Assembly (NCBI RefSeq): GCF_000019605.1
Contig: NC_010482.1
Location: 750,001 to 782,000, forward strand
DNA length: 32,000 nt
Source: Candidatus Korarchaeum cryptofilum OPF8
GTDB lineage: Archaea > Korarchaeota > Korarchaeia > Korarchaeales > Korarchaeaceae
Direction: 5' to 3'
A model generated the notes under the pieces. That model saw only the letters and a list, made by a program, of their open reading frames with translations. It was not told the origin of the DNA and made no database searches. Made by a program: the position numbers and the translations under genes. This document shows positions 6,018 through 31,269 of this stretch, piece after piece. How positions within the stretch are numbered: position 1 is the stretch's first letter; each line of letters opens with the position of its first letter.

Positions 6018-6280
6018 ATCCTTTATAATAAATTTTTGAAGCTTCAGTATTAGCATAAAAACTCTTTATATTAGAGGGCCTCAGAAGCTCCCTACACTCT
6101 CTAGCGGAAGGATTCCGGGGGAGGAGCTATTAGGAGGAAAAGGGATCAGAGAGCTATCGATGGGATTAGGGAAAGATGGAATCGCATTGTTTAGACAAGC
6201 ATCTTGATAGAATCTTGCTATACGCAGTGGATCGGGTGATGGAGGAGTTAATGATGAATCCCTCGGGACGCTTATTATAA

Positions 6281-7135
6281 CTAATCCAGCCTCATAACGC
6301 ATTCAGACCTGAGCAGACACTCTCTGCACAATTTCTTCGAGCAATACAGCTTCTCATGGAGGTAGAATACTGTTTGGGCCCATCCAGCTAGCCTTCCTAA
6401 TGATCTAGATGCGAGCCTCCTCACGCACTCATTTGCGGGACAGTCGTGACACTCATACTTAACGCACATACTCCTCTTAGGGAGTTCGAAGTCCCAGAGA
6501 TCGAGCTTCCTAACCATAGATATGAAGTGCCTGTCCACTGGGACTGATGTAGTATCGGCTATCCCAAAGAGGAGGAATGCATCAGCTACCTTAGGCCCGC
6601 AGTACTTACACCTCAAGATTCCCCTCCTAGTCGTCCATATATCCTCGCTCATAGCTGATGCTATACAGGGAAAAGATTCCCTGAGCCTCCTCAATTGATA
6701 ACTCCCAGCTACCCTTGGAGCAATTTCTGCAGCTTCAAATGGGTCGTCTGTCATCTCCCAGATCTTTCTGGACCACTTAATCACGTTCCCGTGATAATTA
6801 GTGGATTGAGAGAGGAAAATCGGGATCATTATGTGGAGCGGATCTTGAGGATCTACGGAGAGCCCCAGATTTGGGTACTGTGCTCTGAGTAGATCTACGA
6901 GCCAGGGCAATCCCGTCTCCTCCGAATCCAGGATATCCATAAACCAAGCTCCGCTCCAATATAATGCTTCCTCGCACTCCGTCAGCAAGAATCTCCCATC
7001 AACTCTCATTCTGCATCCTTTCTTCATCCCCGCTACTTTCACATAAGTCTCATTCGATCTATCGAAAAGTGAGAGTGTAAATGAAGGATAGAGAGTTAAT
7101 TCGAGGTCCACTGGCTTTATCTCTATCTTCTCCAA
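6281..7135 (-). CDS. HhH-GPD superfamily DNA glycosylase, Ogg-like, with a Cys-rich C-terminus
   Basis: CGPKVADAFLLFGIADTTSVPVDRHF matches the Ogg-type HhH-GPD motif (G.KVAD...L...PVD.H), with the Lys and Asp in place. The C-terminal Cys arrays are CVKYECHDCPANEC and CSKKLCRECLLRSEC. The start is TTG, preceded by AGGTGAT. Confidence 0.65.
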   Translation of the reverse strand: MEKIEIKPVDLELTLYPSFTLSLFDRSNETYVKVAGMKKGCRMRVDGRFLLTECEEALYWSGAWFMDILDSEETGLPWLVDLLRAQYPNLGLSVDPQDPLHIMIPIFLSQSTNYHGNVIKWSRKIWEMTDDPFEAAEIAPRVAGSYQLRRLRESFPCIASAMSEDIWTTRRGILRCKYCGPKVADAFLLFGIADTTSVPVDRHFISMVRKLDLWDFELPKRSMCVKYECHDCPANECVRRLASRSLGRLAGWAQTVFYLHEKLYCSKKLCRECLLRSECVMRLD

Positions 7136-22207: not shown

Positions 22208-22768
22208 ATGTATTTGAGGGAAGTGAAGAACTGGTCTGACAGGAAAGGCGTCCTTTATGCCAGAGTCGACGTGCCTGAATTCTCCGAAGTTATCCTGCGT
22301 GATGTGATCATAATGTCCACGAGATGGTGGGCTGATTTCATGTCGGGCATATCGGCCCTCATGGGGGAGAAGGCCCTCAGGCCCGTCCTCTATTACTCAG
22401 CTTACCGGATGATGAAGCAGCACAACCAGAAGGGAGTCATGAAGATAATTAAGGAGGGCAAATTGACTAGGAAGAGGATATTCGAGATAGCTTGCGATAT
22501 ATTCTCAACCCTGGGCTTCGGAGAGGTGAGGAGCATAGAGCTGATCGGAGGTAAGATAAGGATCACAGTCAAGGATTCATTCGAGGCCAGGGGAAGGAGA
22601 GCCGATGCTCCGGTCTGTCATTTCGTAGCCGGAATATTATCGGCGATAGTTGAGGATGTCTTCAGCATAAGGACGGGTCCCCTCGTGGAGGAGAGCTGCG
22701 CCGCTACTGGAAATGATTTCTGCACTTTCTCAGCCGAGGTGATGGAACTTGGGGTTAATAGCATCTAG
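22208..22768 (+). CDS. corQ: V4R (4-vinyl reductase) domain protein, CorQ-like
   Basis: The C-terminal half LGFGEVRSIELIGGKIRITVKDSFE.....ADAPVCHFVAGILSAIVEDVF......VEESCAATGNDFCTFSAEV is the V4R pattern (C.F..G.L.G....E..C...G...C.F). TATA-like CTTTTTAAGG lies about 28 nt upstream. Confidence 0.75.
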   Translation: MYLREVKNWSDRKGVLYARVDVPEFSEVILRDVIIMSTRWWADFMSGISALMGEKALRPVLYYSAYRMMKQHNQKGVMKIIKEGKLTRKRIFEIACDIFSTLGFGEVRSIELIGGKIRITVKDSFEARGRRADAPVCHFVAGILSAIVEDVFSIRTGPLVEESCAATGNDFCTFSAEVMELGVNSI

Positions 22769-23867
22769 GGAAGTTGAGCTCATCGTCAGGGCTGTTGGTA
22801 AGTGTTATTTAAGCTGCCCCCACTGTAATTGGAATGAGGAGATCCGTGAGGCATACCTCAGGGAGTCCTCCCTGGAGCTCCTGCTGGATATACTCATAGG
22901 GGAGGGATACAAGCCCGAAGTATACTTCTCTTGCCCAGATCCCCTGCTTCACCCCTCTCTTTCATCCCTGATAAGTGCCCCCATTGAGAGGGGACTCAAA
23001 TCGACTGTCCTGGTCCCCGCGAGGACTAGATCGGATAGGAAAGCTTGGGAATCTCTCCTCAATGCGAGCAGGATTTTCATCTTTTCATCCTCAATAAGGG
23101 ATCTCAGGGGATCAAAGGAATTCCTCAAGTTCCTCATCTCAAATGGATCCGACTTGAAGCTCATGTTCCTTCGAGGCTCGAAGGATGATTTGAATCAGAT
23201 CCTAGAGTTCGCGAGGGATATGGGGCTGGAGCTATGGGTAGCCCCTCCTCTATTCAGGATTCCAAAGGTTGAGGGATTAGATGAGAATTTGGAGCTCGGT
23301 AAACAAGTAGCAAAATTCATGGGCATTTATGACGTCAGGATAGCGTTCAAAGGGGACTTCCCGTTCAAAATAATTGAGGGTCCGAGGTGCGAGATAGGGT
23401 GCAAGCTCCTCTACCTTGACCCAGAGGGGAGATTGGGTAGATGCCCGTTTAATGCGATGGATCAGCTCAACTCTCCTCCTCTGGAGGCGATTCGCATACT
23501 GGATGAGAGTTGCGAGAGGGGAGAGGGGAGGAAATTTGAGCTCGTTCCCTCCATCAAGTTGATAACTGGGAACGGGGAGGAAATTTATGAGAGGGATCTG
23601 GAGCTCCTCTCACTCATAGAAGAGCTTGGGAGTTTGAGCCAAGCGGCGAGAACTATTGGAGCGACACCATCATCTATCTTCAAGAGGATAAGGAGAATGG
23701 AGGGGGTGCTGGGGTTACGCTTGATCACGAGCTCCAGGGGGGGATACCTGAGGGGAGGTGTCAGGCTCACGCCGGAGTGCGAGGGGCTCGTGAGGAGGTA
23801 TAGGGAGCTTAAGGTATCAATTATTAACAGATACCGTCTTTCCCTAATGGAAAAATTGGATGGTTAG
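22749..23867 (+). CDS. corR: CorR-like regulator: radical-SAM/SPASM-like Cys domain fused to a C-terminal ModE/LysR-type HTH
   Basis: A Cx3Cx2C motif (CYLSCPHC) lies at 22803-22826, and a second Cys group reads CEIGCKLLYLDPEGRLGRCPF. The C-terminus (about 23589-23800) reads LELLSLIEELGSLSQAARTIGATPSSIFKRIRRMEGVLGLRLITSSRGG..RGGVRLTPECEGLV, a ModE-N/LysR HTH pattern. The start is uncertain (TTG at 22749 overlaps corQ). Confidence 0.7.
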   Translation: MGLIASREVELIVRAVGKCYLSCPHCNWNEEIREAYLRESSLELLLDILIGEGYKPEVYFSCPDPLLHPSLSSLISAPIERGLKSTVLVPARTRSDRKAWESLLNASRIFIFSSSIRDLRGSKEFLKFLISNGSDLKLMFLRGSKDDLNQILEFARDMGLELWVAPPLFRIPKVEGLDENLELGKQVAKFMGIYDVRIAFKGDFPFKIIEGPRCEIGCKLLYLDPEGRLGRCPFNAMDQLNSPPLEAIRILDESCERGEGRKFELVPSIKLITGNGEEIYERDLELLSLIEELGSLSQAARTIGATPSSIFKRIRRMEGVLGLRLITSSRGGYLRGGVRLTPECEGLVRRYRELKVSIINRYRLSLMEKLDG

Positions 23868-23883
23868 AGCTTAGGAAAATCTG

Positions 23884-23925
23884 AAATTCGGAATGCTTAT
23901 TTTCTATGAATTCCTTAAATTCCGG
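23884..23925 (+). promoter_or_regulatory. cooF promoter with repeats bracketing the TATA box
   Basis: The TATA-like TTATTTTCTA (23897-23906) is flanked by the inverted pair GGAAT (23890-23894) / ATTCC (23910-23914). A direct repeat AAATTCGG (23884-23891) / AAATTCCGG (23917-23925) also flanks it. The cooF ATG is at 23934. Confidence 0.35.
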
Positions 23926-23933
23926 GGGATCCC

Positions 23934-24509
23934 ATGGTCCAACCCCTCGAGGAATTCTTGATATACGTAGACCCCTCCCGTTGCGTCGGATGCAGGAGCT
24001 GCGAGATAGCTTGCGCAGTTGAACACTCCTTGAGCAAGTCCCTTTATGCTTCTATCTTTGAGGATCCCAGGCCTAAGCCCAGGACGAGCGTCGTTGTGGC
24101 CGATAGTATTTACGTCCCCATGAGGTGCATGCACTGCGATCCCGCTCCGTGCGTCAAAGCGTGCCCCACGGGATCCATGCATAGGACTGATGAGGGATTC
24201 GTCATCTCGGATCCCTCCAAGTGCATAGGTTGCAGGACATGCTTGTTAGCTTGCCCATTCGGTCATCCGAGTTACAGTAGAGCCGGAAAGGTGATCAAGT
24301 GCGATCACTGCGTCGATAGGTTCAGAGTGGGGCTGCCGCCAGCCTGCGTCGAGGCGTGCCCCACCGGGGCCCTCAGGTTCGGCAGGGCTGAGGAGCTGCT
24401 GATGGAGGAGAAGAGGAGGAGGGCCCTCGAGCTAATAATAGGGATGGGGGAGGGAGGGGTCGTCTACAAGAGGGCATCCTCCGGCTTCCCCTCTCTCATA
24501 GGGAGGTGA
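23934..24509 (+). CDS. cooF: CooF-type 4Fe-4S ferredoxin-like electron-transfer protein
   Basis: Four Cys clusters are present: CVGCRSCEIAC, CMHCDPAPCVKACPTGS, CIGCRTCLLACPFG and CDHC...PACVEACPTGAL. Confidence 0.85.
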   Translation: MVQPLEEFLIYVDPSRCVGCRSCEIACAVEHSLSKSLYASIFEDPRPKPRTSVVVADSIYVPMRCMHCDPAPCVKACPTGSMHRTDEGFVISDPSKCIGCRTCLLACPFGHPSYSRAGKVIKCDHCVDRFRVGLPPACVEACPTGALRFGRAEELLMEEKRRRALELIIGMGEGGVVYKRASSGFPSLIGR

Positions 24510-24513
24510 TCTT

Positions 24514-26436
24514 ATGGAGGAGAGAGTTTATGAGAGGATATTGAGGGCCACTAAGAGGGAGTTCTATGAGCAGGCATCGATAGACCCGACGGTCCTACCG
24601 CTACTCGAGAAAGCTGATAGGGAGGGTGTAGAGACCGCTTGGCACAGGTACCTCAAGCAGCAGCCCCAATGTGGCTTCGGATTGCTGGGTGTGTGCTGCA
24701 GGAATTGTAACATGGGTCCCTGCAGGATAGATCCATTCGGCTATGGCCCGGATAAGGGTATATGCGGTGCTGATGCCGATACGATAGTAGCTAGGAACCT
24801 CATGAGGGCACTGGCTGCTGGTGCAGCAGCTCACAGCGATCACGCTAGGGATATAGTGGAGGTGTTCAGGGGGATAGTGGACGGATGGGCCAAGGATTAC
24901 AAGATAGCTGATGAGCAGAAGTTATTGGGTATAGCGAGAGCCCTCGGGGTGAAGACGGATGGAAAGAGCATCATGGAGGTCGCCAAGGAGGTCGTGGAGA
25001 TAGCCGAGATGGAGTTCGGTAAGCCGGATAATTCGCCTCTCAGGTTCCTTAACGCATATGCCCCTGAGAGGAGGAAGGAGCTATGGAGGAAACTCGGAAT
25101 AACTCCTAGGGCTATAGATAGAGAGGTAACTGAGATCATGCATAGGACCCATATGGGAGTGGATGCCGATCCGCTCAATCTGATAGCTCAGGGCCTCAGG
25201 GCAGCGCTGGCCGATGGTTGGAGCGGATCCATGATGGCCACCCTCTTCAGCGACGTTATGTTCGGGACGCCCAAGCCCATAAAGGTCTGGGCTAATCTTG
25301 GAGTGCTCAGGGAGGATTCTGTTAACGTGATGGTCCACGGCCACAATCCGCTGCTCTCCATGCAGATAGCTGAAGTTGCGAAGGATCCCGAGATGGTTGA
25401 ACTAGCTAAGAGCGTGGGAGCTGAGGGAATTAATGTAGTGGGAATGTGCTGCACTGGTAATGAAGTATTGATGAGGCTGGGAATTCCTATAGCCGGCAAC
25501 TTCCTCCAGCAGGAGCTCGCGATTATAACAGGAGCTCTGGAAGCTGTGATAGTGGATTACCAATGCATAATGCCAGCTCTAGTCGATGTAGCCTCATGCT
25601 ACCACACTAAGATAATAACGACGGAGCCTAAGACGAAGATACCGGGGGCAATTCACATAGAGTTCGATAAGGCCAACGCTAGGGAGAGCGCCAAGAAGAT
25701 ACTGAAGGTGGCTGTGGAGAACTTCAAGAATAGGGTGAAGGAGAGAGTTTTCATACCTAAGGAGAAGATGGAAGCCGTGGTCGGCTTCAGCGTTGAGGCG
25801 ATACTCTCAGCCCTAGGAGGGTCCCTAGAACCATTGGCTGATGCCCTCAAGAGCGGGAAGATAAAGGGAATAGCTGGAGTGGTCGGCTGCACGAACCCGA
25901 AAGTGAGGCACGATAGCTCCCACGTGGCGATAACTAAGGAGCTCATAGCCAACGATATCCTAGTAGTTGGTACTGGCTGCTGGGCAATAGCGATGAGTAA
26001 GCACGGTTTCTTCAAACCTGAGGCAGCTGAGATGGCTGGGCCAGGGCTGAGAGAGGTGTGCAAGGCTCTAGGGATACCTCCCGCCCTCCACATGGGGAGC
26101 TGTGTAGATTGCAGCAGGATGCTAATAGCTTTAGCAGCTCTGGCCGATCATTTGGGGGTTGATATCAGCGATCTACCTGCAGCCGGCTCGGCTCCTGAGT
26201 GGTACAGTGAGAAGGCCGTATCCATAGGTAGCTACTTCGTAGCGAGCGGTCTCCTCGTCCATCTAGGGACGATCCCTCAGGTCCTGGGATCCAAGAGAGT
26301 AGTGGAGCTGCTGACCAAGGACGCCGAGAGTTTAGTCGGTGGCAAGTTCTTCGTAGAGACCGATCCGGTGAAAGCGGCTAGGGTCATGATAGAGCACATA
26401 AGGGAGAAGAGGAGAAAGCTCGGCTGGCCAGAGTGA
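24514..26436 (+). CDS. cooS: Anaerobic Ni-dependent carbon-monoxide dehydrogenase catalytic subunit
   Basis: The 640-aa product has the N-terminal CGFGLLGVCCRNCNMGPCRI (B/D-cluster Cys), plus HGHNP, GMCCTGNE and GSCVDCSR. An SD GGGAGGTGAT lies at 24501-24510. Confidence 0.95.
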   Translation: MEERVYERILRATKREFYEQASIDPTVLPLLEKADREGVETAWHRYLKQQPQCGFGLLGVCCRNCNMGPCRIDPFGYGPDKGICGADADTIVARNLMRALAAGAAAHSDHARDIVEVFRGIVDGWAKDYKIADEQKLLGIARALGVKTDGKSIMEVAKEVVEIAEMEFGKPDNSPLRFLNAYAPERRKELWRKLGITPRAIDREVTEIMHRTHMGVDADPLNLIAQGLRAALADGWSGSMMATLFSDVMFGTPKPIKVWANLGVLREDSVNVMVHGHNPLLSMQIAEVAKDPEMVELAKSVGAEGINVVGMCCTGNEVLMRLGIPIAGNFLQQELAIITGALEAVIVDYQCIMPALVDVASCYHTKIITTEPKTKIPGAIHIEFDKANARESAKKILKVAVENFKNRVKERVFIPKEKMEAVVGFSVEAILSALGGSLEPLADALKSGKIKGIAGVVGCTNPKVRHDSSHVAITKELIANDILVVGTGCWAIAMSKHGFFKPEAAEMAGPGLREVCKALGIPPALHMGSCVDCSRMLIALAALADHLGVDISDLPAAGSAPEWYSEKAVSIGSYFVASGLLVHLGTIPQVLGSKRVVELLTKDAESLVGGKFFVETDPVKAARVMIEHIREKRRKLGWPE

Positions 26437-26441
26437 CCTTT

Positions 26442-27224
26442 ATGGGGCTCAAGATAATAGTGGCCGGGAAGGGAGGGGTCGGAAAGACAACCGTCGCCTC
26501 ACTACTCTCATTTTTTCTCTCATCAAGGGGGAAGAGGGTTTTGGCTCTGGACACGGACTCCGTGCCCAACCTAGCTCTCTCCCTAGGCCTTCCCAGGGAG
26601 ATGGAGAGTAAGATAGTTCCAATAGTCAAGGACGAATCCCTCGTCGAGGAGAGGACGGGGGCGAGACCCGGCGAGAGCTGGGGCCTCCTCTTCAGGCTGA
26701 ATCCGAAGGTCGACGATATCGTCGATAAATATGGGATAAGGATTAGCGAGAATTTGAGTCTCCTGGTGGTTGGCAGCATAGATTCGGCAAAACAGGGATG
26801 CCTCTGTCCAGCTATATCTTTGGGAAAGGCCCTTATCTCCCACATACTGATGGAGGAGCGTGACGTGATCGTAGTGGACTCGGAAGCCGGGGCGGAGGTC
26901 TTCGGTAGGGGATTGGCTGAGAGATTCGATCACATGCTCTGCGTCACTGAGTCGACTCAGAAGTCCCTGGAGATAGCTAAGAGGATCGCCAGGATGGGCA
27001 GGGAGCTGGGGATAAGGGAAGTCACCTACATAGTTAACAAATTCTCCGGTGATGAGAGCGAGAGGCTCAGGATATCCGAGACCTTAGATGCGAGGCATTT
27101 CTTCATCCCTTATGATTATTCCCTGATCAGAGCCGAGATCGAGGGGAGGAGCCTGAAGGAACTGGATGAATCCTCCCCAGCAGTTCAGGCCCTGAGATCG
27201 GCCTTCGAATCTATTTTCGGGTGA
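26442..27224 (+). CDS. cooC: CooC-type Ni-insertion accessory ATPase
   Basis: It has the deviant Walker A motif IVAGKGGVGKTTVAS and the metal-binding C-x-C (GCLCPA). The alternative GTG start at 26433 overlaps the cooS stop. Confidence 0.9.
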   Translation: MGLKIIVAGKGGVGKTTVASLLSFFLSSRGKRVLALDTDSVPNLALSLGLPREMESKIVPIVKDESLVEERTGARPGESWGLLFRLNPKVDDIVDKYGIRISENLSLLVVGSIDSAKQGCLCPAISLGKALISHILMEERDVIVVDSEAGAEVFGRGLAERFDHMLCVTESTQKSLEIAKRIARMGRELGIREVTYIVNKFSGDESERLRISETLDARHFFIPYDYSLIRAEIEGRSLKELDESSPAVQALRSAFESIFG

Positions 27225-27229
27225 TCCTC

Positions 27230-29176
27230 ATGCCCAAGGTCGGGGTTTACGTTTGCCATTGTGGTAAGAACATAGCCGGGAAGGTGGATGTCCAGAGAGT
27301 AGCCGCTGAGATGAAGAAACATCCTCAGGTCACTGTATCGAGGCATTACTTCTTCATGTGCAGTAGTTTCGGTCAGGAATTGATAAAAAGGGATATAAAG
27401 GCAGGGAAAGTTGATAGGGTCGTCGTAGCCGCCTGCAGCCCCAAGCTCCACGAACCCTTATTCAGAGGGGTTGTGGAGGAAGCTGGACTGAACTTCGGTT
27501 ATTATGAGCAGGCTAACATAAGGGAACTCGTCTCCTGGTCGACTGAAGATCCAGAGGAGGCCACCAGGAAAGCTATAGCCTATACTTGGGCTGCTGTGGA
27601 GAGGGTCCTCGAGGCAGAGCCGGTGGAGAGCGAGGAGTTCAGGGTGAACAGGGAGGCCCTGATAATAGGGGGAGGAGTGGCCGGTATAGCGGCAGCTCTC
27701 GATCTAGCTGAGAAGGGAATAAGGGTCCATATCATAGAGAGATCTCCTACAATAGGAGGTAAAATGGCTCTATTGGATAGAGTATTTCCTACGGGTGACT
27801 GTTCACTTTGCATACTCACTCCCATGATGGCCGAAGCCGAGCACAACCCTAACATAACCATTCACACTATGTGCGAGGTCACGGAGGTGAGCGGATCCGT
27901 CGGCGACTTCAGGGTGAGAGTTAAGAAGAGGGCCAGATATGTGGATCAAGATAAGTGTGTGGCCTGCGGTATATGCGCGGAATCATGCCCCGTGGAGGTT
28001 CTGAATGAGTGGTACGCCAGGCTGGGGAAGAGGAAAGCTGCTTACATACCTTTCCCCCAGTCCGTCCCCAGGGCTTATGTCATAGATAGGGAGAATTGCC
28101 TTTTCTTCAGGGATGGAAGCTGCAGGAAGTGCGAGGAGGTCTGCCCGGCCAAGGCAATAGATCTGAGTGAGAGCGATGGGGAATTCGAGCTCAGAGTGGG
28201 GGCTATAATAGTGGCGACGGGAGCTGACGAGTACGATGCCAGCAACCTCAAGAATTATGGTTATGGGAAGATAGCTGATGTCATAACGCATTTTGGTTTC
28301 GAGAGCCTCATAAATGTCAATGGTCCGACTGGTGGTCACCTGAGGAGGCCATCCGATGGTAAAGTACCTGAGAGCATCCTTTTCGTGCAGTGCGCCGGGA
28401 GCAGGGATGTCAACAATAACCCTTACTGCTCCAACGTCTGCTGCATGATAACGCTCAAGCACGCTGAGATAATCAGGATGGAATATCCCGAGACCAAAGT
28501 TTACGTGGCCTACATAGACATGAGGACCCCTAAGAAGGGGTTCGAGGAGATGTACGCCAGGGTGAGGGAGGAAGGCGTAGTCTTCATCAGAGGGAAGCCG
28601 GGAGAGATAAGGAGGGAGGGGGATAAGTTAGTTACAGAGATATATGATGAGGTGCTAGGTGAGAAATTGAGGCTGGAGGTTGATATGGTCGTGCTAGCCG
28701 CGGGCCTCAGCCCATCCGAGGGAACTCTCTCCATCTCGAGGACGCTGAACATACCGAGGGATCTCTACGGATTTCTTCAGGAATTACATCCAAAACTGAA
28801 GCCAGTTCAGACATCCAGACCGGGCATATTCATATGCGGTACTGCTCAAGGTCCTAAAGACATTCCAGATTCGGTAACACAGGCTAAAGCGGCGGCTAGT
28901 GAGGCTGCTAGGCTCTTGATGATAGGAAAGGTCTTAGTGACCGGGGAGAAGGCGAAGGTGAATTCCGAGCTATGCACGGGTTGCGGGGCATGCGTCGAGG
29001 AGTGTCCCTTCTCAGCCATAGTGCTGGAGGAGGGGAAGGCCAAGGTGCTCCCTCTCGCCTGTATGGGGTGCGGTATATGCCAGGGGGCCTGCCCGACTGG
29101 AGCTATAGAGAGGAGGCTCTACGATCACGGTCAGATCCTCAATCAGATAGATGGCCTGTTGGAGGTGGTGACATGA
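27230..29176 (+). CDS. hdrA: Heterodisulfide reductase subunit A-like flavoprotein
   Basis: The N-terminus reads VYVCHCGKNIAG and the FAD motif IIGGGVAGIAAALDLAEKG. Four ferredoxin-type CxxCxxCxxxCP motifs are present: CVACGICAESCP, C..CRKCEEVCP, CTGCGACVEECP and CMGCGICQGACP. An SD GGGTGATCC precedes the ATG; GTG at 27221 is an alternative start. Confidence 0.9.
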   Translation: MPKVGVYVCHCGKNIAGKVDVQRVAAEMKKHPQVTVSRHYFFMCSSFGQELIKRDIKAGKVDRVVVAACSPKLHEPLFRGVVEEAGLNFGYYEQANIRELVSWSTEDPEEATRKAIAYTWAAVERVLEAEPVESEEFRVNREALIIGGGVAGIAAALDLAEKGIRVHIIERSPTIGGKMALLDRVFPTGDCSLCILTPMMAEAEHNPNITIHTMCEVTEVSGSVGDFRVRVKKRARYVDQDKCVACGICAESCPVEVLNEWYARLGKRKAAYIPFPQSVPRAYVIDRENCLFFRDGSCRKCEEVCPAKAIDLSESDGEFELRVGAIIVATGADEYDASNLKNYGYGKIADVITHFGFESLINVNGPTGGHLRRPSDGKVPESILFVQCAGSRDVNNNPYCSNVCCMITLKHAEIIRMEYPETKVYVAYIDMRTPKKGFEEMYARVREEGVVFIRGKPGEIRREGDKLVTEIYDEVLGEKLRLEVDMVVLAAGLSPSEGTLSISRTLNIPRDLYGFLQELHPKLKPVQTSRPGIFICGTAQGPKDIPDSVTQAKAAASEAARLLMIGKVLVTGEKAKVNSELCTGCGACVEECPFSAIVLEEGKAKVLPLACMGCGICQGACPTGAIERRLYDHGQILNQIDGLLEVVT

Positions 29177-30054
29177 GCTACGTGATAGGCTTCTGCTGTA
29201 ATGAGTGCGCTTATGCTGCGGCTGATCTAGCTGGTAGCACTCACAGGAAGCATCCAGCGAATGTATTGGTGATAAGGATACCCTGCTCCGGTACCTTCGA
29301 CCCGTCTTGGCTCGTTTACGCCCTAGCTAGAGGGGCTGATGCAGCTTTCGTGGCTGGTTGCAGGAAGGGGGAGTGCCATTACGTGGATGGAAACCTCAAA
29401 GCTGAGAAGAGGGTTGCTTTCGTGAAACAGCTGCTCGAGGCCGTCGGAGTGGAACCTGAGAGAGTTGAGATGTTCTTCATGGCGTCCTCTGAGCCACATA
29501 AGTTCGTGAAAGCCGCTGAGGAGATGAGTAAGAGGGTGGAGAAGCTCGGCCCTCTCCCACGCAGGGGCAGGATCGATAGGGTAAGGCTGGGGAAGAAGGA
29601 GAACCTTGTTGAGGCCCTTAAAGCAATCGCCAAAGAGTTTAAGGACATCAAGCTTCCTGAAATACCTGGCTTCAAGGTACCGGTTTATGATGAGAGCTGC
29701 ATCGGTTGCGGGGCATGCGTCGAGGCTTGCGAGCGTGATGCCCTCAGGATGGTAGACTCCGATGGATTCAGGAGGATATTATTGAATGCGGCTAGGTGTA
29801 CAGCATGTGGAGATTGTGTTAAGGCATGCGAAGAGAGTGGAGAGTCTTCTCTGAGGCTGGGAGGCATGAGAATGTCTCAATTAATCTCAGATTGGAGTGA
29901 GGGGATCAGGATACCTCTAGTCGCTTGCGAAGTTTGCGGAAAATATTTCGCGACGGAAGGGGAATTGAGGAAAGCGGATTCTCCTCAAATATGCCCGAGT
30001 TGCAAGGAGGTGCTATCCGCTAAAGCGATGTCATTCGGTAAGGTGAGAGCATGA
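29173..30054 (+). CDS. mvhD: MvhD/FlpD domain fused to a 2x[4Fe-4S] ferredoxin domain and a C-terminal CxxC...CxxC element
   Basis: MSYVIGFCCNECAYAAADLAG......V.VIRIPCSG......VY.ALARGADAAFVAGCRKGECHY..GN is the MvhD pattern. It is followed by CIGCGACVEACE, CTACGDCVKACE and CEVCGKYF...CPSCKE. An ATGA overlap links it to the hdrA stop. The ORF-track start at 28972 is an out-of-gene extension. Confidence 0.85.
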   Translation: MSYVIGFCCNECAYAAADLAGSTHRKHPANVLVIRIPCSGTFDPSWLVYALARGADAAFVAGCRKGECHYVDGNLKAEKRVAFVKQLLEAVGVEPERVEMFFMASSEPHKFVKAAEEMSKRVEKLGPLPRRGRIDRVRLGKKENLVEALKAIAKEFKDIKLPEIPGFKVPVYDESCIGCGACVEACERDALRMVDSDGFRRILLNAARCTACGDCVKACEESGESSLRLGGMRMSQLISDWSEGIRIPLVACEVCGKYFATEGELRKADSPQICPSCKEVLSAKAMSFGKVRA

Positions 30055-30536
30055 GCCTCAGGGATGATATAAAAGCGATCTCCGGGCAGGACGTCATGCT
30101 ATGCTTCCAATGCGGGGAGTGTTCATCATCCTGCCAGATGGCCGGTTACAAGGGCTTCTCCCCCGCGAAGTTGATACATTCCATCCAATTGGGAATGGAG
30201 GATGTCCTGAGGTCTAGAATTTACGAACTCTGCCTTCACTGTTTCCTCTGTTCCGTCAGGTGCCCTCAGGGACTGAGCTTCCCGGATATAGCTACAGCAT
30301 TATCCAACATAACTGTGAGGAGGTATGGTCCGGGGAAGATTGAGAAAATGTTCTTAGACGAGATAACTAATAAGGGATTTTTGAACCCAGCTACATTTGC
30401 TCTGAAGACCTTTGGATTCTCCCTCCCCAAATACGCTGGTCTGAAGGGCCTCAAAGCCGCTCCCATTATCTTCGAGAGGGGGAACGTCAGGAGGGAACTG
30501 GTAGAGGAGGTGAGGAGGGTTGCAAGGGAGGGTTGA
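30051..30536 (+). CDS. hdrC: Heterodisulfide reductase subunit C-like
   Basis: It contains CFQCGECSSSC and CLHCFLCSVRCPQG. An ATGA overlap links it to the upstream gene. Confidence 0.85.
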   Translation: MSLRDDIKAISGQDVMLCFQCGECSSSCQMAGYKGFSPAKLIHSIQLGMEDVLRSRIYELCLHCFLCSVRCPQGLSFPDIATALSNITVRRYGPGKIEKMFLDEITNKGFLNPATFALKTFGFSLPKYAGLKGLKAAPIIFERGNVRRELVEEVRRVAREG

Positions 30537-31269
30537 GGCTTACTATCCCGGATGCTCGGCGAGGACCACTGAAAGAGCATATCTGAGGACCGCTCTCTTC
30601 GTCCTCAGGAAGTTGGGGGTGGAATTCAGGCTGCTCGACGATTTACCATGCTGCGGCACGCTGGAGGGTGAGCTCTACAGCAGGGAACTCACCAGGAAGC
30701 TCGCTGAGATAATAAATAGGGAAGCCAATGGGAGAGTTATAACCGGTTGCAGCGGTTGTTACAGCACGATAAACAGGGGCGGTGGTTCTGCAACTCACTT
30801 AGTCGATTTCCTGTTCAGGGAAGTCGGCCTGGAGAGGATAGCTGAGAGGATAGTTAGGAAGGTGGATCTCAAGGTCGCAGCTTACTACGGGTGCCAAGCT
30901 CTGAGGCCCAAAGAGTTGGCTATAGATGATCCGGAGGATCCCAGAGTGCTCGAGGAAATACTATCGCTCACTGGAGTCCAGACAGTAGATTTTCCAATGA
31001 GGACTAAGTGTTGCGGTGGACCAATAGCCCTCAAAGAGCCGGATCTTGCCATAAGGATGGCTAAGGATGTAGTGAAATCTGCTGAGGATAGCGGAGCCGA
31101 GGCCATAGCTACTATGTGCAACCTCTGCCACTTCATGCTGGACTTCTACACATCGGGGCTGCCGATCCTCCACTTCACTCAGATACTGGCTTACTCCATG
31201 GGGATGCCTCCGGATGAGCTGGGATTGGATGAATTATTCAATCCCCCCAGGAAGGGATTCGGGAGGTGA
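30520..31269 (+). CDS. hdrB: Heterodisulfide reductase subunit B-like (two CCG domains)
   Basis: The first CCG domain is YYPGCSA...LPCCGT...GCSGC. The second is YYGCQ...TKCCGGP...MCNLCHF. The TTG start overlaps the hdrC 3' end by 17 nt. Confidence 0.85.
   Translation: MQGRVEAYYPGCSARTTERAYLRTALFVLRKLGVEFRLLDDLPCCGTLEGELYSRELTRKLAEIINREANGRVITGCSGCYSTINRGGGSATHLVDFLFREVGLERIAERIVRKVDLKVAAYYGCQALRPKELAIDDPEDPRVLEEILSLTGVQTVDFPMRTKCCGGPIALKEPDLAIRMAKDVVKSAEDSGAEAIATMCNLCHFMLDFYTSGLPILHFTQILAYSMGMPPDELGLDELFNPPRKGFGR

Follow-up and report, generated by a model that had tools for sequence, protein, structure and literature searches.

Which proteins switch on the carbon monoxide dehydrogenase (CODH) genes of a korarchaeon, and which part of them might perceive carbon monoxide (CO)? 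The question arises from a 32-kb stretch of Candidatus Korarchaeum cryptofilum OPF8 (contig NC_010482.1, positions 750,001 to 782,000), hereafter the window, in whose numbering coordinates are given unless a locus handle stands with them. Two overlapping open reading frames (ORFs) lie there 5' of cooF, cooS and cooC. The original prediction took them for a pair like CorQ and CorR of Thermococcus onnurineus NA1, and described the second as a radical S-adenosylmethionine (SAM)/SPASM-like cysteine scaffold joined to a C-terminal helix-turn-helix (HTH). Judged from sequence and gene order, the pair is a diverged CorQR orthologue of korarchaeal type and belongs to a system already known rather than to a new one. 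Structural modelling and profile comparison show, at the level of prediction, that the first ~260 residues of CorR form a radical-SAM (beta/alpha)6 fold with a Twitch/MoaA-like auxiliary domain, and the last ~90 a ModE-type winged helix. The genes under discussion are the following.

22208..22768, + strand: corQ-like gene, 186 amino acids, stand-alone V4R protein with an ATG start (Pfam V4R)
22736..22742, + strand: Shine-Dalgarno-like GAGGTGA within the end of corQ, 6 nt 5' of the corR TTG (direct sequence reading)
22749..23867, + strand: corR-like gene, 372 amino acids, TTG start (full-length homology to T. onnurineus P0215)
23934..24509, + strand: cooF, ferredoxin-like 4Fe-4S protein (Pfam Fer4_11, 2.9e-23)
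24514..26436, + strand: cooS, Ni-CODH catalytic subunit (TIGR01702, 2e-226)
26433..27224, + strand: cooC, Ni-insertion ATPase (CbiA/ParA-type P-loop matches; position equals that of T. onnurineus cooC)

Among archaea, CorQR is the one CO-responsive regulator described so far. CorQ/CorR (TON_1015/TON_1016) is reported as a CO-responsive activator pair of the T. onnurineus NA1 CODH cluster (Kim et al. 2015, AEM 81:1708; cited in PMC4791640, PMC6557876, PMC13077300); CO-dependent CODH activation and loss of growth on CO upon deletion of either gene are known for T. onnurineus only. On sensing itself, the papers examined name a V4R domain as the sensor in place of heme and go no further. The two names are exchanged in PMC6557876, which assigns the LysR DNA-binding domain to CorQ and the V4R domain to CorR. 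By the strain name deltaCorR/corQR-up used in another paper, and by the original abstract, the V4R protein should be called CorQ and the HTH protein CorR, and the names are used in that sense below. The 2015 abstract by Kim et al. is said to mention korarchaeal CorQR homologues already.

Window CorR is 26% identical to T. onnurineus P0215 (TON_1016) over 371 amino acids, with residues 11 to 370 aligned (BLASTP E 4e-31), and a hidden Markov model (HMM) of its family matches the Thermococcus cluster P0009 over the full length (6e-40). We reached P0215 through a Thermococcus barophilus-type cluster among the full-length CorR clusters, a search from which led to T. onnurineus NA1. The locus found there consists of a 184-amino-acid V4R gene, a 1-nt overlap, the CorR gene, cooF, cooS, cooC, cooT and Mch/Mrp genes. 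Because the P0215 gene lies directly 5' of cooF (TON_1017), P0215 was equated with TON_1016/CorR and the neighbouring V4R gene with CorQ. Between the CorQ proteins themselves, pairwise similarity to the Thermococcus type is weak (E 4e-4); comparison of the korarchaeal CorQ profile with a profile of seven Thermococcus-type partners raises this to 94.6% in hhalign (E 7e-8, 157 columns). The orthology of the window pair rests on this CorR homology, the CorQ profile match and the same corQ-corR-cooF-cooS-cooC order, so that the predicted assignment and the alignment check proposed for it both held. The two systems differ in that their sequences are very diverged and that the CO response of the window pair, whose host is uncultured, is a prediction. 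They differ as well in the genes that follow, since the T. onnurineus operon continues to an energy-converting Mch hydrogenase and an Mrp antiporter and that of the window to Hdr/Mvh-like genes (Hdr, heterodisulfide reductase).

The extent of the family became apparent only with a sensitive search. A word-indexed homologue search was insensitive for CorR, giving 6 matches for the protein alone and 7 when a profile of 34 sequences was used, and a scan of genome contigs returned three close loci only. When 1.84 billion representative proteins were searched exhaustively with an HMM, ~30 full-length clusters with the CorR architecture were recovered, the remaining matches being to the HTH only. 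The closest relatives (99%, 82%, 60% and 59% identity) come from uncultured metagenome-assembled genomes (MAGs) of Thermoproteota/Korarchaeum type and have an unchanged gene order. The order corQ-corR-cooF-cooS-cooC and the Cys residues are kept in orthologues of 82%, 60%, 59% and 43% identity, which argues that these features of the locus are not due to chance. The overlap of the two ORFs, which share 20 nt as the original prediction had it, is also retained: loci L001 and L002 have the TTG start and the same 20-nt corQ/corR overlap, and in L003 corR begins with TTG and the overlap is 14 nt.

We then surveyed 16 loci beyond the window. In 11 of these (L001–L004, L007, L012, L014, L015, L017–L019) a V4R gene is the direct 5' neighbour of the CorR-type gene, and with the window counted it is present in 12 of the 13 CorR-type loci. 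Wherever the contig reaches far enough, cooF-cooS-cooC adjoins the CorR-type gene (9/9 surveyed loci, 10/10 with the window), the CODH genes being divergently oriented in two of the nine. The P0020 group has its CorR-type gene (L013 5001-6146) directly 5' of cooF-cooS-cooC-Mrp, and a search of the flanking gaps in L013 for a V4R ORF found none; in two members of this group, P0025 and P0028, Tyr replaces the first Cys of the N-terminal triad described below. Three proteins, P0011, P0037 and P0048, are outliers with neither a V4R gene nor CODH. P0011 has an aldehyde:ferredoxin oxidoreductase and a hydrogenase in its neighbourhood, P0037 (L009 6001-7008) is divergent from a molybdopterin oxidoreductase operon, and P0048 (L016 5001-5978) lies beside a ferredoxin-like gene. 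As a separate observation, the distant CorR-like proteins P0037 and P0048 retain a GGE motif, P0037 with a weak Pfam Radical_SAM match. Taken with the ModE-type HTH and the MoaA-like fold, these features hint at an origin from a molybdenum- or tungsten-related radical-SAM regulator.

The architecture of CorR was examined in an AlphaFold2 model built with a 47-sequence alignment. The model has a mean pLDDT (predicted local distance difference test) of 88.7 and contains six beta-alpha units (residues 7–165), a beta-rich region (182–223) and a C-terminal winged helix. Its features are placed on the window as follows.

22767..23243, + strand: (beta/alpha)6 radical-SAM-like core, residues 7–165 (model secondary structure, Foldseek, hhalign)
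22803..22826, + strand: CxxxCxxC triad, C19-YLS-C23-PH-C26 (in 35–40 of 47 members; aligns to ECNYNCVHC of a genuine radical-SAM protein)
22932..22943, + strand: C62-P-D-P in place of the GGE(P) SAM-binding motif at the end of beta2, S61-C62-P63-D64-P65 (hhalign register)
23388..23513, + strand: Twitch/MoaA-like auxiliary Cys site, C214-x3-C218-x8-G227-x4-C232 ... C255 (conservation and Foldseek)
23592..23783, + strand: ModE/LysR-type winged HTH, residues 282–345 (Pfam HTH_1, 2.7e-10; ModE_repress TIGR00637, 1.5e-12)

Searched against the Protein Data Bank (PDB) with Foldseek, the model has as its top matches exclusively radical-SAM enzymes, many with SPASM or Twitch domains: SuiB (5e-8), MoaA (1.6e-7), viperin-like, BlsE, HydE, QueE, SkfB, CteB, anSME, PqqE, EpeE and SpeY. 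Alignments to MoaA, SkfB, CteB and SuiB run over ~290–314 columns and reach through the auxiliary Cys region. The sequence profile of CorR independently matches SuiB (1e-3) and SpeY (2.8e-3), and hhalign aligns the family with a genuine radical-SAM/SPASM protein from locus L011 (92.8%, E 3.9e-7). In this register KCYLSCPHC falls on ECNYNCVHC and FSCPD-PLLHP on LSGWGEPTVHP, and C62 therefore takes the place of the first glycine in GGE, the SAM-binding motif. The Pfam Radical_SAM profile (PF04055) is less sensitive to the relationship; window CorR scores 15.8 bits over residues 18–107, below the cut-off of 29.5, and weak matches occur in 16 of 47 relatives (best 6.5e-5). The fold is thus shared with the Twitch/SPASM enzymes (MoaA 1tv7, SuiB 5v1q, SkfB 6efn, BlsE 7vob, SpeY 7wzv, anSME 4k36) over up to ~300 columns, as is the CxxxCxxC triad after beta1. 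CorR differs from them in lacking GGE and a second auxiliary cluster motif and in its sub-threshold Pfam score. It is also fused to a DNA-binding domain, and is tied in the genome to a regulator partner and a target operon rather than to a biosynthetic pathway.

SPASM domains carry a seven-Cys motif (Cx9-15Gx4C ... Cx2Cx5Cx3C ... C) that holds two auxiliary clusters, and Twitch is a truncated SPASM with a beta-hairpin C-x(9-15)-G-x4-C and a single auxiliary cluster after the radical-SAM core. CorR has only C214, C218, C232 and C255, with no Cx2Cx5Cx3C and no Pfam SPASM match, and a full SPASM domain was rejected on these grounds. The radical-SAM part of the predicted scaffold stood, and the SPASM part gave way to a Twitch/MoaA-like one. 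The spacing C218-x8-G227-x4-C232 is one residue short of the Twitch range, a hairpin is predicted there (strands 204–210 and 220–223), and the region lies within the Foldseek alignments to MoaA, SkfB, BlsE and SpeY. The auxiliary motif of MoaA is CX2CX13C, which C214-x3-C218-x13-C232 of CorR resembles. The second Cys group of CorR fits a one-cluster Twitch/MoaA-like auxiliary site rather than the seven-Cys SPASM.

At the C-terminus, the HTH profile of CorR matches PDB entry 2ijl (1.5e-13) and E. coli ModE (1.8e-9), in line with the ModE/LysR-type HTH that had been anticipated; the V4R and HTH_1 searches gave matches, those for ModE_repress (the best NCBIfam match of the C-terminus) and Radical_SAM gave matches below the cut-off, and that for SPASM gave none. 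The winged helix is of the type found in the N-terminal domain of ModE and in HTH_1 of LysR proteins. A classical LysR-type regulator was rejected, as HTH_1 is C-terminal instead of N-terminal and no LysR_substrate domain is found in Pfam or NCBIfam. ModE was rejected as well, the winged HTH being unaccompanied by a Mop/TOBE domain and TIGR00637 scoring 47.5, below its curated cut-off of 98.5. The database name 'LysR family' is misleading, since it reflects the HTH only. The radical-SAM/Twitch-like architecture is family-wide, T. onnurineus CorR included, and is not special to the window locus. We found no description of a radical-SAM-like domain in CorR in the literature searched, which did not include the original CorQR report of 2015.

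Conservation of the Cys residues was counted over 47 family members, and the motifs named in the original prediction (CYLSCPHC, SCPDP at the GGE position and CEIGC...CPF) recur in the orthologues. The auxiliary site is the best conserved: C218 and C232 are each found in 46 of 47 members, P233 and C255 in 45, and G227 in 41. C214 is present in 12 of 47 and is restricted to the korarchaeal clade and a triad-less clade, position 214 of the Thermococcus type being Ser or another residue. T. onnurineus CorR has in common with the window protein the CxxxCxxC, CPxP, C218/C232/C255 and the C-terminal HTH, and differs in that korarchaeal CorR has the additional residues C214 and C344. At the GGE position the family consensus is CP[DN]P. 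C62 occurs in 39 of the 40 members with a triad and in one of the seven without, 40 of 47 in all. Spacing within the triad is not constant (C-x2-C-x3-C, C-x3-H-x2-C, Y-x3-C-x2-C). Members of the triad-less clade (P0026 and P0030, from L014 and L018) have neither CxxxCxxC nor C62 and keep CPxxC (C214/C218); they remain paired with a V4R gene and are divergently oriented to cooFSC and hydrogenase genes. The replacement of GGE by CP[DN]P, the co-occurrence of C62 with the triad, the variable triad spacing and the retention of V4R and CODH by the triad-less clade argue for predicted Fe-S sites that are non-catalytic. The suggestion in the original prediction, that the Cys domain may hold an Fe-S cluster for sensing CO or redox state instead of a catalytic centre, is compatible with this conservation.

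CorQ was recognized by Pfam V4R at E 6.3e-10 over residues 118–177, in agreement with the V4R domain predicted for the upstream ORF. Its family profile matches the stand-alone V4R protein MJ1460 (2osd, 8e-10) and Asgard TRAPPC3. A single-sequence structure model of CorQ was poor (pLDDT 54.2) and was not used for fold searches. One motif is of particular interest.

22616..22723, + strand: V4R Cys3 metal-site motif, C137-x26-C164-x7-C172, with E161 (invariant in 8 CorQ sequences)

The spacing is nearly equal to that of the Zn ligands C151/E172/C177/C185 of DmpR (C-x25-C-x7-C; PMC7264223) and of the redox-relevant Cys C206/C232/C240 of MaMsvR (C-x25-C-x7-C; PMC3729527). The methanogen-specific MsvR also resembles the window system in being an archaeal redox-responsive transcription switch with a V4R domain of three conserved Cys; it differs in having HTH and V4R in one chain, whereas the window V4R is separate and paired with a radical-SAM-like HTH protein.

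A candidate target for CorR lies in the 66-nt spacer between corR and cooF, where an invariant GAANTTCGGAA box stands just 5' of a TATA-like box.

23883..23893, + strand: candidate CorR operator GAAATTCGGAA (GAA-N-TTCGGAA), proposed from its conservation
23896..23903, + strand: A/T-rich TATA-like box of the cooF promoter, a putative archaeal promoter element

The sequence GAAATTCGGAA occurs once in the 32-kb window. Five orthologous promoters of cooF retain GAA-N-TTCGGAA unchanged between diverging flanks, although the CorR proteins of these loci are only 43–82% identical. The TATA-like box reads CTTATTTT in the window and TTTAATTT and TTAATATT in orthologues. A position just 5' of the TATA box is that expected for an archaeal activator, and the location of the GAA-N-TTCGGAA box would fit an activator site. 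An 18-nt imperfect direct repeat was also observed (23872-23889 and 23905-23922, 72% identity, starts 33 nt apart) flanking the TATA-like box. Both copies end in AAATTC, and they could represent a second CorR half-site or chance. Scans for sigma-70 promoters and intrinsic terminators gave nothing above shuffled expectation, the scan models not being applicable to archaea.

We consider it reasonably probable that CorQ and CorR form a two-protein transcription activator of the cooF-cooS-cooC-hdr-like operon in which the Fe-S sites of CorR receive the signal. In such a mechanism, the overlapping genes with their internal Shine-Dalgarno sequence would have CorQ and CorR made together and acting as a complex. 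CorR would bind as a ModE-like dimer to the GAA-N-TTCGGAA box directly 5' of the cooF TATA box and activate transcription. Its radical-SAM-derived domain would no longer cleave SAM, and two Cys4 iron-sulfur sites (C19/C23/C26 with C62, and C214/C218/C232/C255) would make up the signal-receiving element. The signal would be a CO-dependent reduction, with electrons supplied by basal CODH/CooF or by ferredoxin, and CorQ would modulate or relay it. Several observations weigh against this account. The only Cys residues found family-wide are C218, C232 and C255. The co-variation of C62 with the triad depends on one clade of six members without either, which is about one evolutionary event, and since that clade stands beside CODH the N-terminal site cannot be a universal sensor. 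Thermococcus-type CorQ has an additional CxxC (YECxSC) that is absent from korarchaeal CorQ, and sensing may accordingly differ between the two lineages. In promoters of the Thermococcus type another box, CGAACACG, recurs instead. Finally, the window CODH has Hdr-like genes rather than a hydrogenase as its linked partners, and the physiological signal could therefore differ.

The alternatives turn on where the signal is received and what the CorR cysteines do. CorQ could itself be the CO sensor through a metal site in its V4R domain, leaving the CorR Cys sites structural (Fe-S or Zn in a relic fold) and CorR as the DNA-binding output. We regard this as possible, though not likely. Papers citing Kim et al. 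2015 assign sensing to the 4-vinyl-reductase domain, the C-x26-C-x7-C site with its Glu is invariant in CorQ, V4R cysteines govern redox-dependent DNA binding in MsvR, and a V4R gene accompanies nearly every CorR-type gene. The homologous DmpR site binds Zn, however, and a Cys3Glu-Zn site has no known CO affinity; moreover, the CorR group that stands beside cooFSC with no nearby V4R gene implies that CorR is apparently able to work alone. The near-invariance of C218, C232 and C255 across proteins of ~25% identity also goes beyond what a dispensable relic would need, although a structural role would conserve them too.

If CorR is the receiver, its iron-sulfur cluster might bind CO directly at a site-differentiated iron and so act as a non-heme Fe-S CO sensor, which we judge unlikely. 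The Thermococcus-type auxiliary site has only three conserved Cys, like the open-iron auxiliary cluster of MoaA, itself one of the best structural matches, and no heme-type sensor domain of the CooA or RcoM type was detected in CorQ or CorR by Pfam or NCBIfam. The bacterial regulators CooA and RcoM are likewise CO-dependent activators encoded beside coo genes, but they are heme proteins, of CRP/FNR type and PAS-LytTR architecture respectively. In window CorR, by contrast, C62 and C214 bring both sites to four Cys with no obvious open iron, and we favour CO-dependent reduction over direct CO binding because both sites have four Cys ligands. We know of no biological precedent for a regulatory [4Fe-4S]-CO sensor, which counts further against direct binding. 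Least probable of all, and to our mind a very slight chance, is that the N-terminal domain has kept its radical-SAM enzyme activity, for instance to make or modify a small-molecule effector or to modify CorQ, with the HTH coupling this chemistry to transcription. Such a role is favoured by the presence of the CxxxCxxC triad and the radical-SAM fold, by the GGE of the outliers P0037 and P0048 and by the weak Radical_SAM match of P0037. It is opposed by the exchange of GGE for CP[DN]P in nearly every CODH-linked member, by the sub-threshold Pfam score, and by a triad that varies in spacing and is lost in one CODH-linked clade.

The scaffold of CorR offers a testable starting point for explaining heme-free CO sensing in archaea. 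It is a degenerate radical-SAM/Twitch fold that carries two conserved Cys sites and has Cys where GGE would be expected, and it is found also in the CorR of the genetically tractable T. onnurineus. It supplies residues to mutate and a cofactor hypothesis, and corrects a misleading 'LysR family' annotation. CorQR further emerges as a controller of CODH clusters wired to different partners, Hdr-like in the window and hydrogenase in Thermococcus. A more specific proposal, that CorR is the first transcription factor on a radical-SAM/Twitch scaffold and that its [4Fe-4S] cluster or clusters, not heme or the V4R partner, sense CO or CO-driven redox change, is one we put forward tentatively and think rather doubtful. 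If true, an Fe-S sensor on such a scaffold would represent a new class of non-heme gas sensor, whose origin may lie in the fusion of a MoaA-like enzyme to a DNA-binding domain of ModE type.

The genes 3' of cooC probably form the distal part of the regulated operon.

27221..31269, + strand: HdrA-like, MvhD/FlpD-like, HdrC-like and HdrB-like genes (Pfam matches)

Within this Hdr-type module the HdrA-like protein combines FAD (flavin adenine dinucleotide) and 4Fe-4S domains and the HdrB-like protein has CCG domains. An HdrA-like gene likewise follows cooC in L002 (7090-9045) and L012 (9531-11122). A heterodisulfide-reductase-like or bifurcating module may therefore be supplied by CO oxidation at the window locus. 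Searches of the window for tRNA genes and Rfam families gave no matches. In T. onnurineus, the CGAACACG box lies just 5' of the published footprint of the repressor EnfR. Two gene boundaries were also irregular. The listed MvhD/FlpD-like ORF shares 205 nt (28972-29176) with the HdrA-like ORF; its Pfam FlpD match begins at residue 71, and the true start is probably near 29180. In L012, sequence homologous to the CooF N-terminus (LIYVDPSRCVGC, 6123-6338) precedes the start called for cooF and lacks a start codon in the same frame, which may reflect a frameshift or an assembly error in the MAG.

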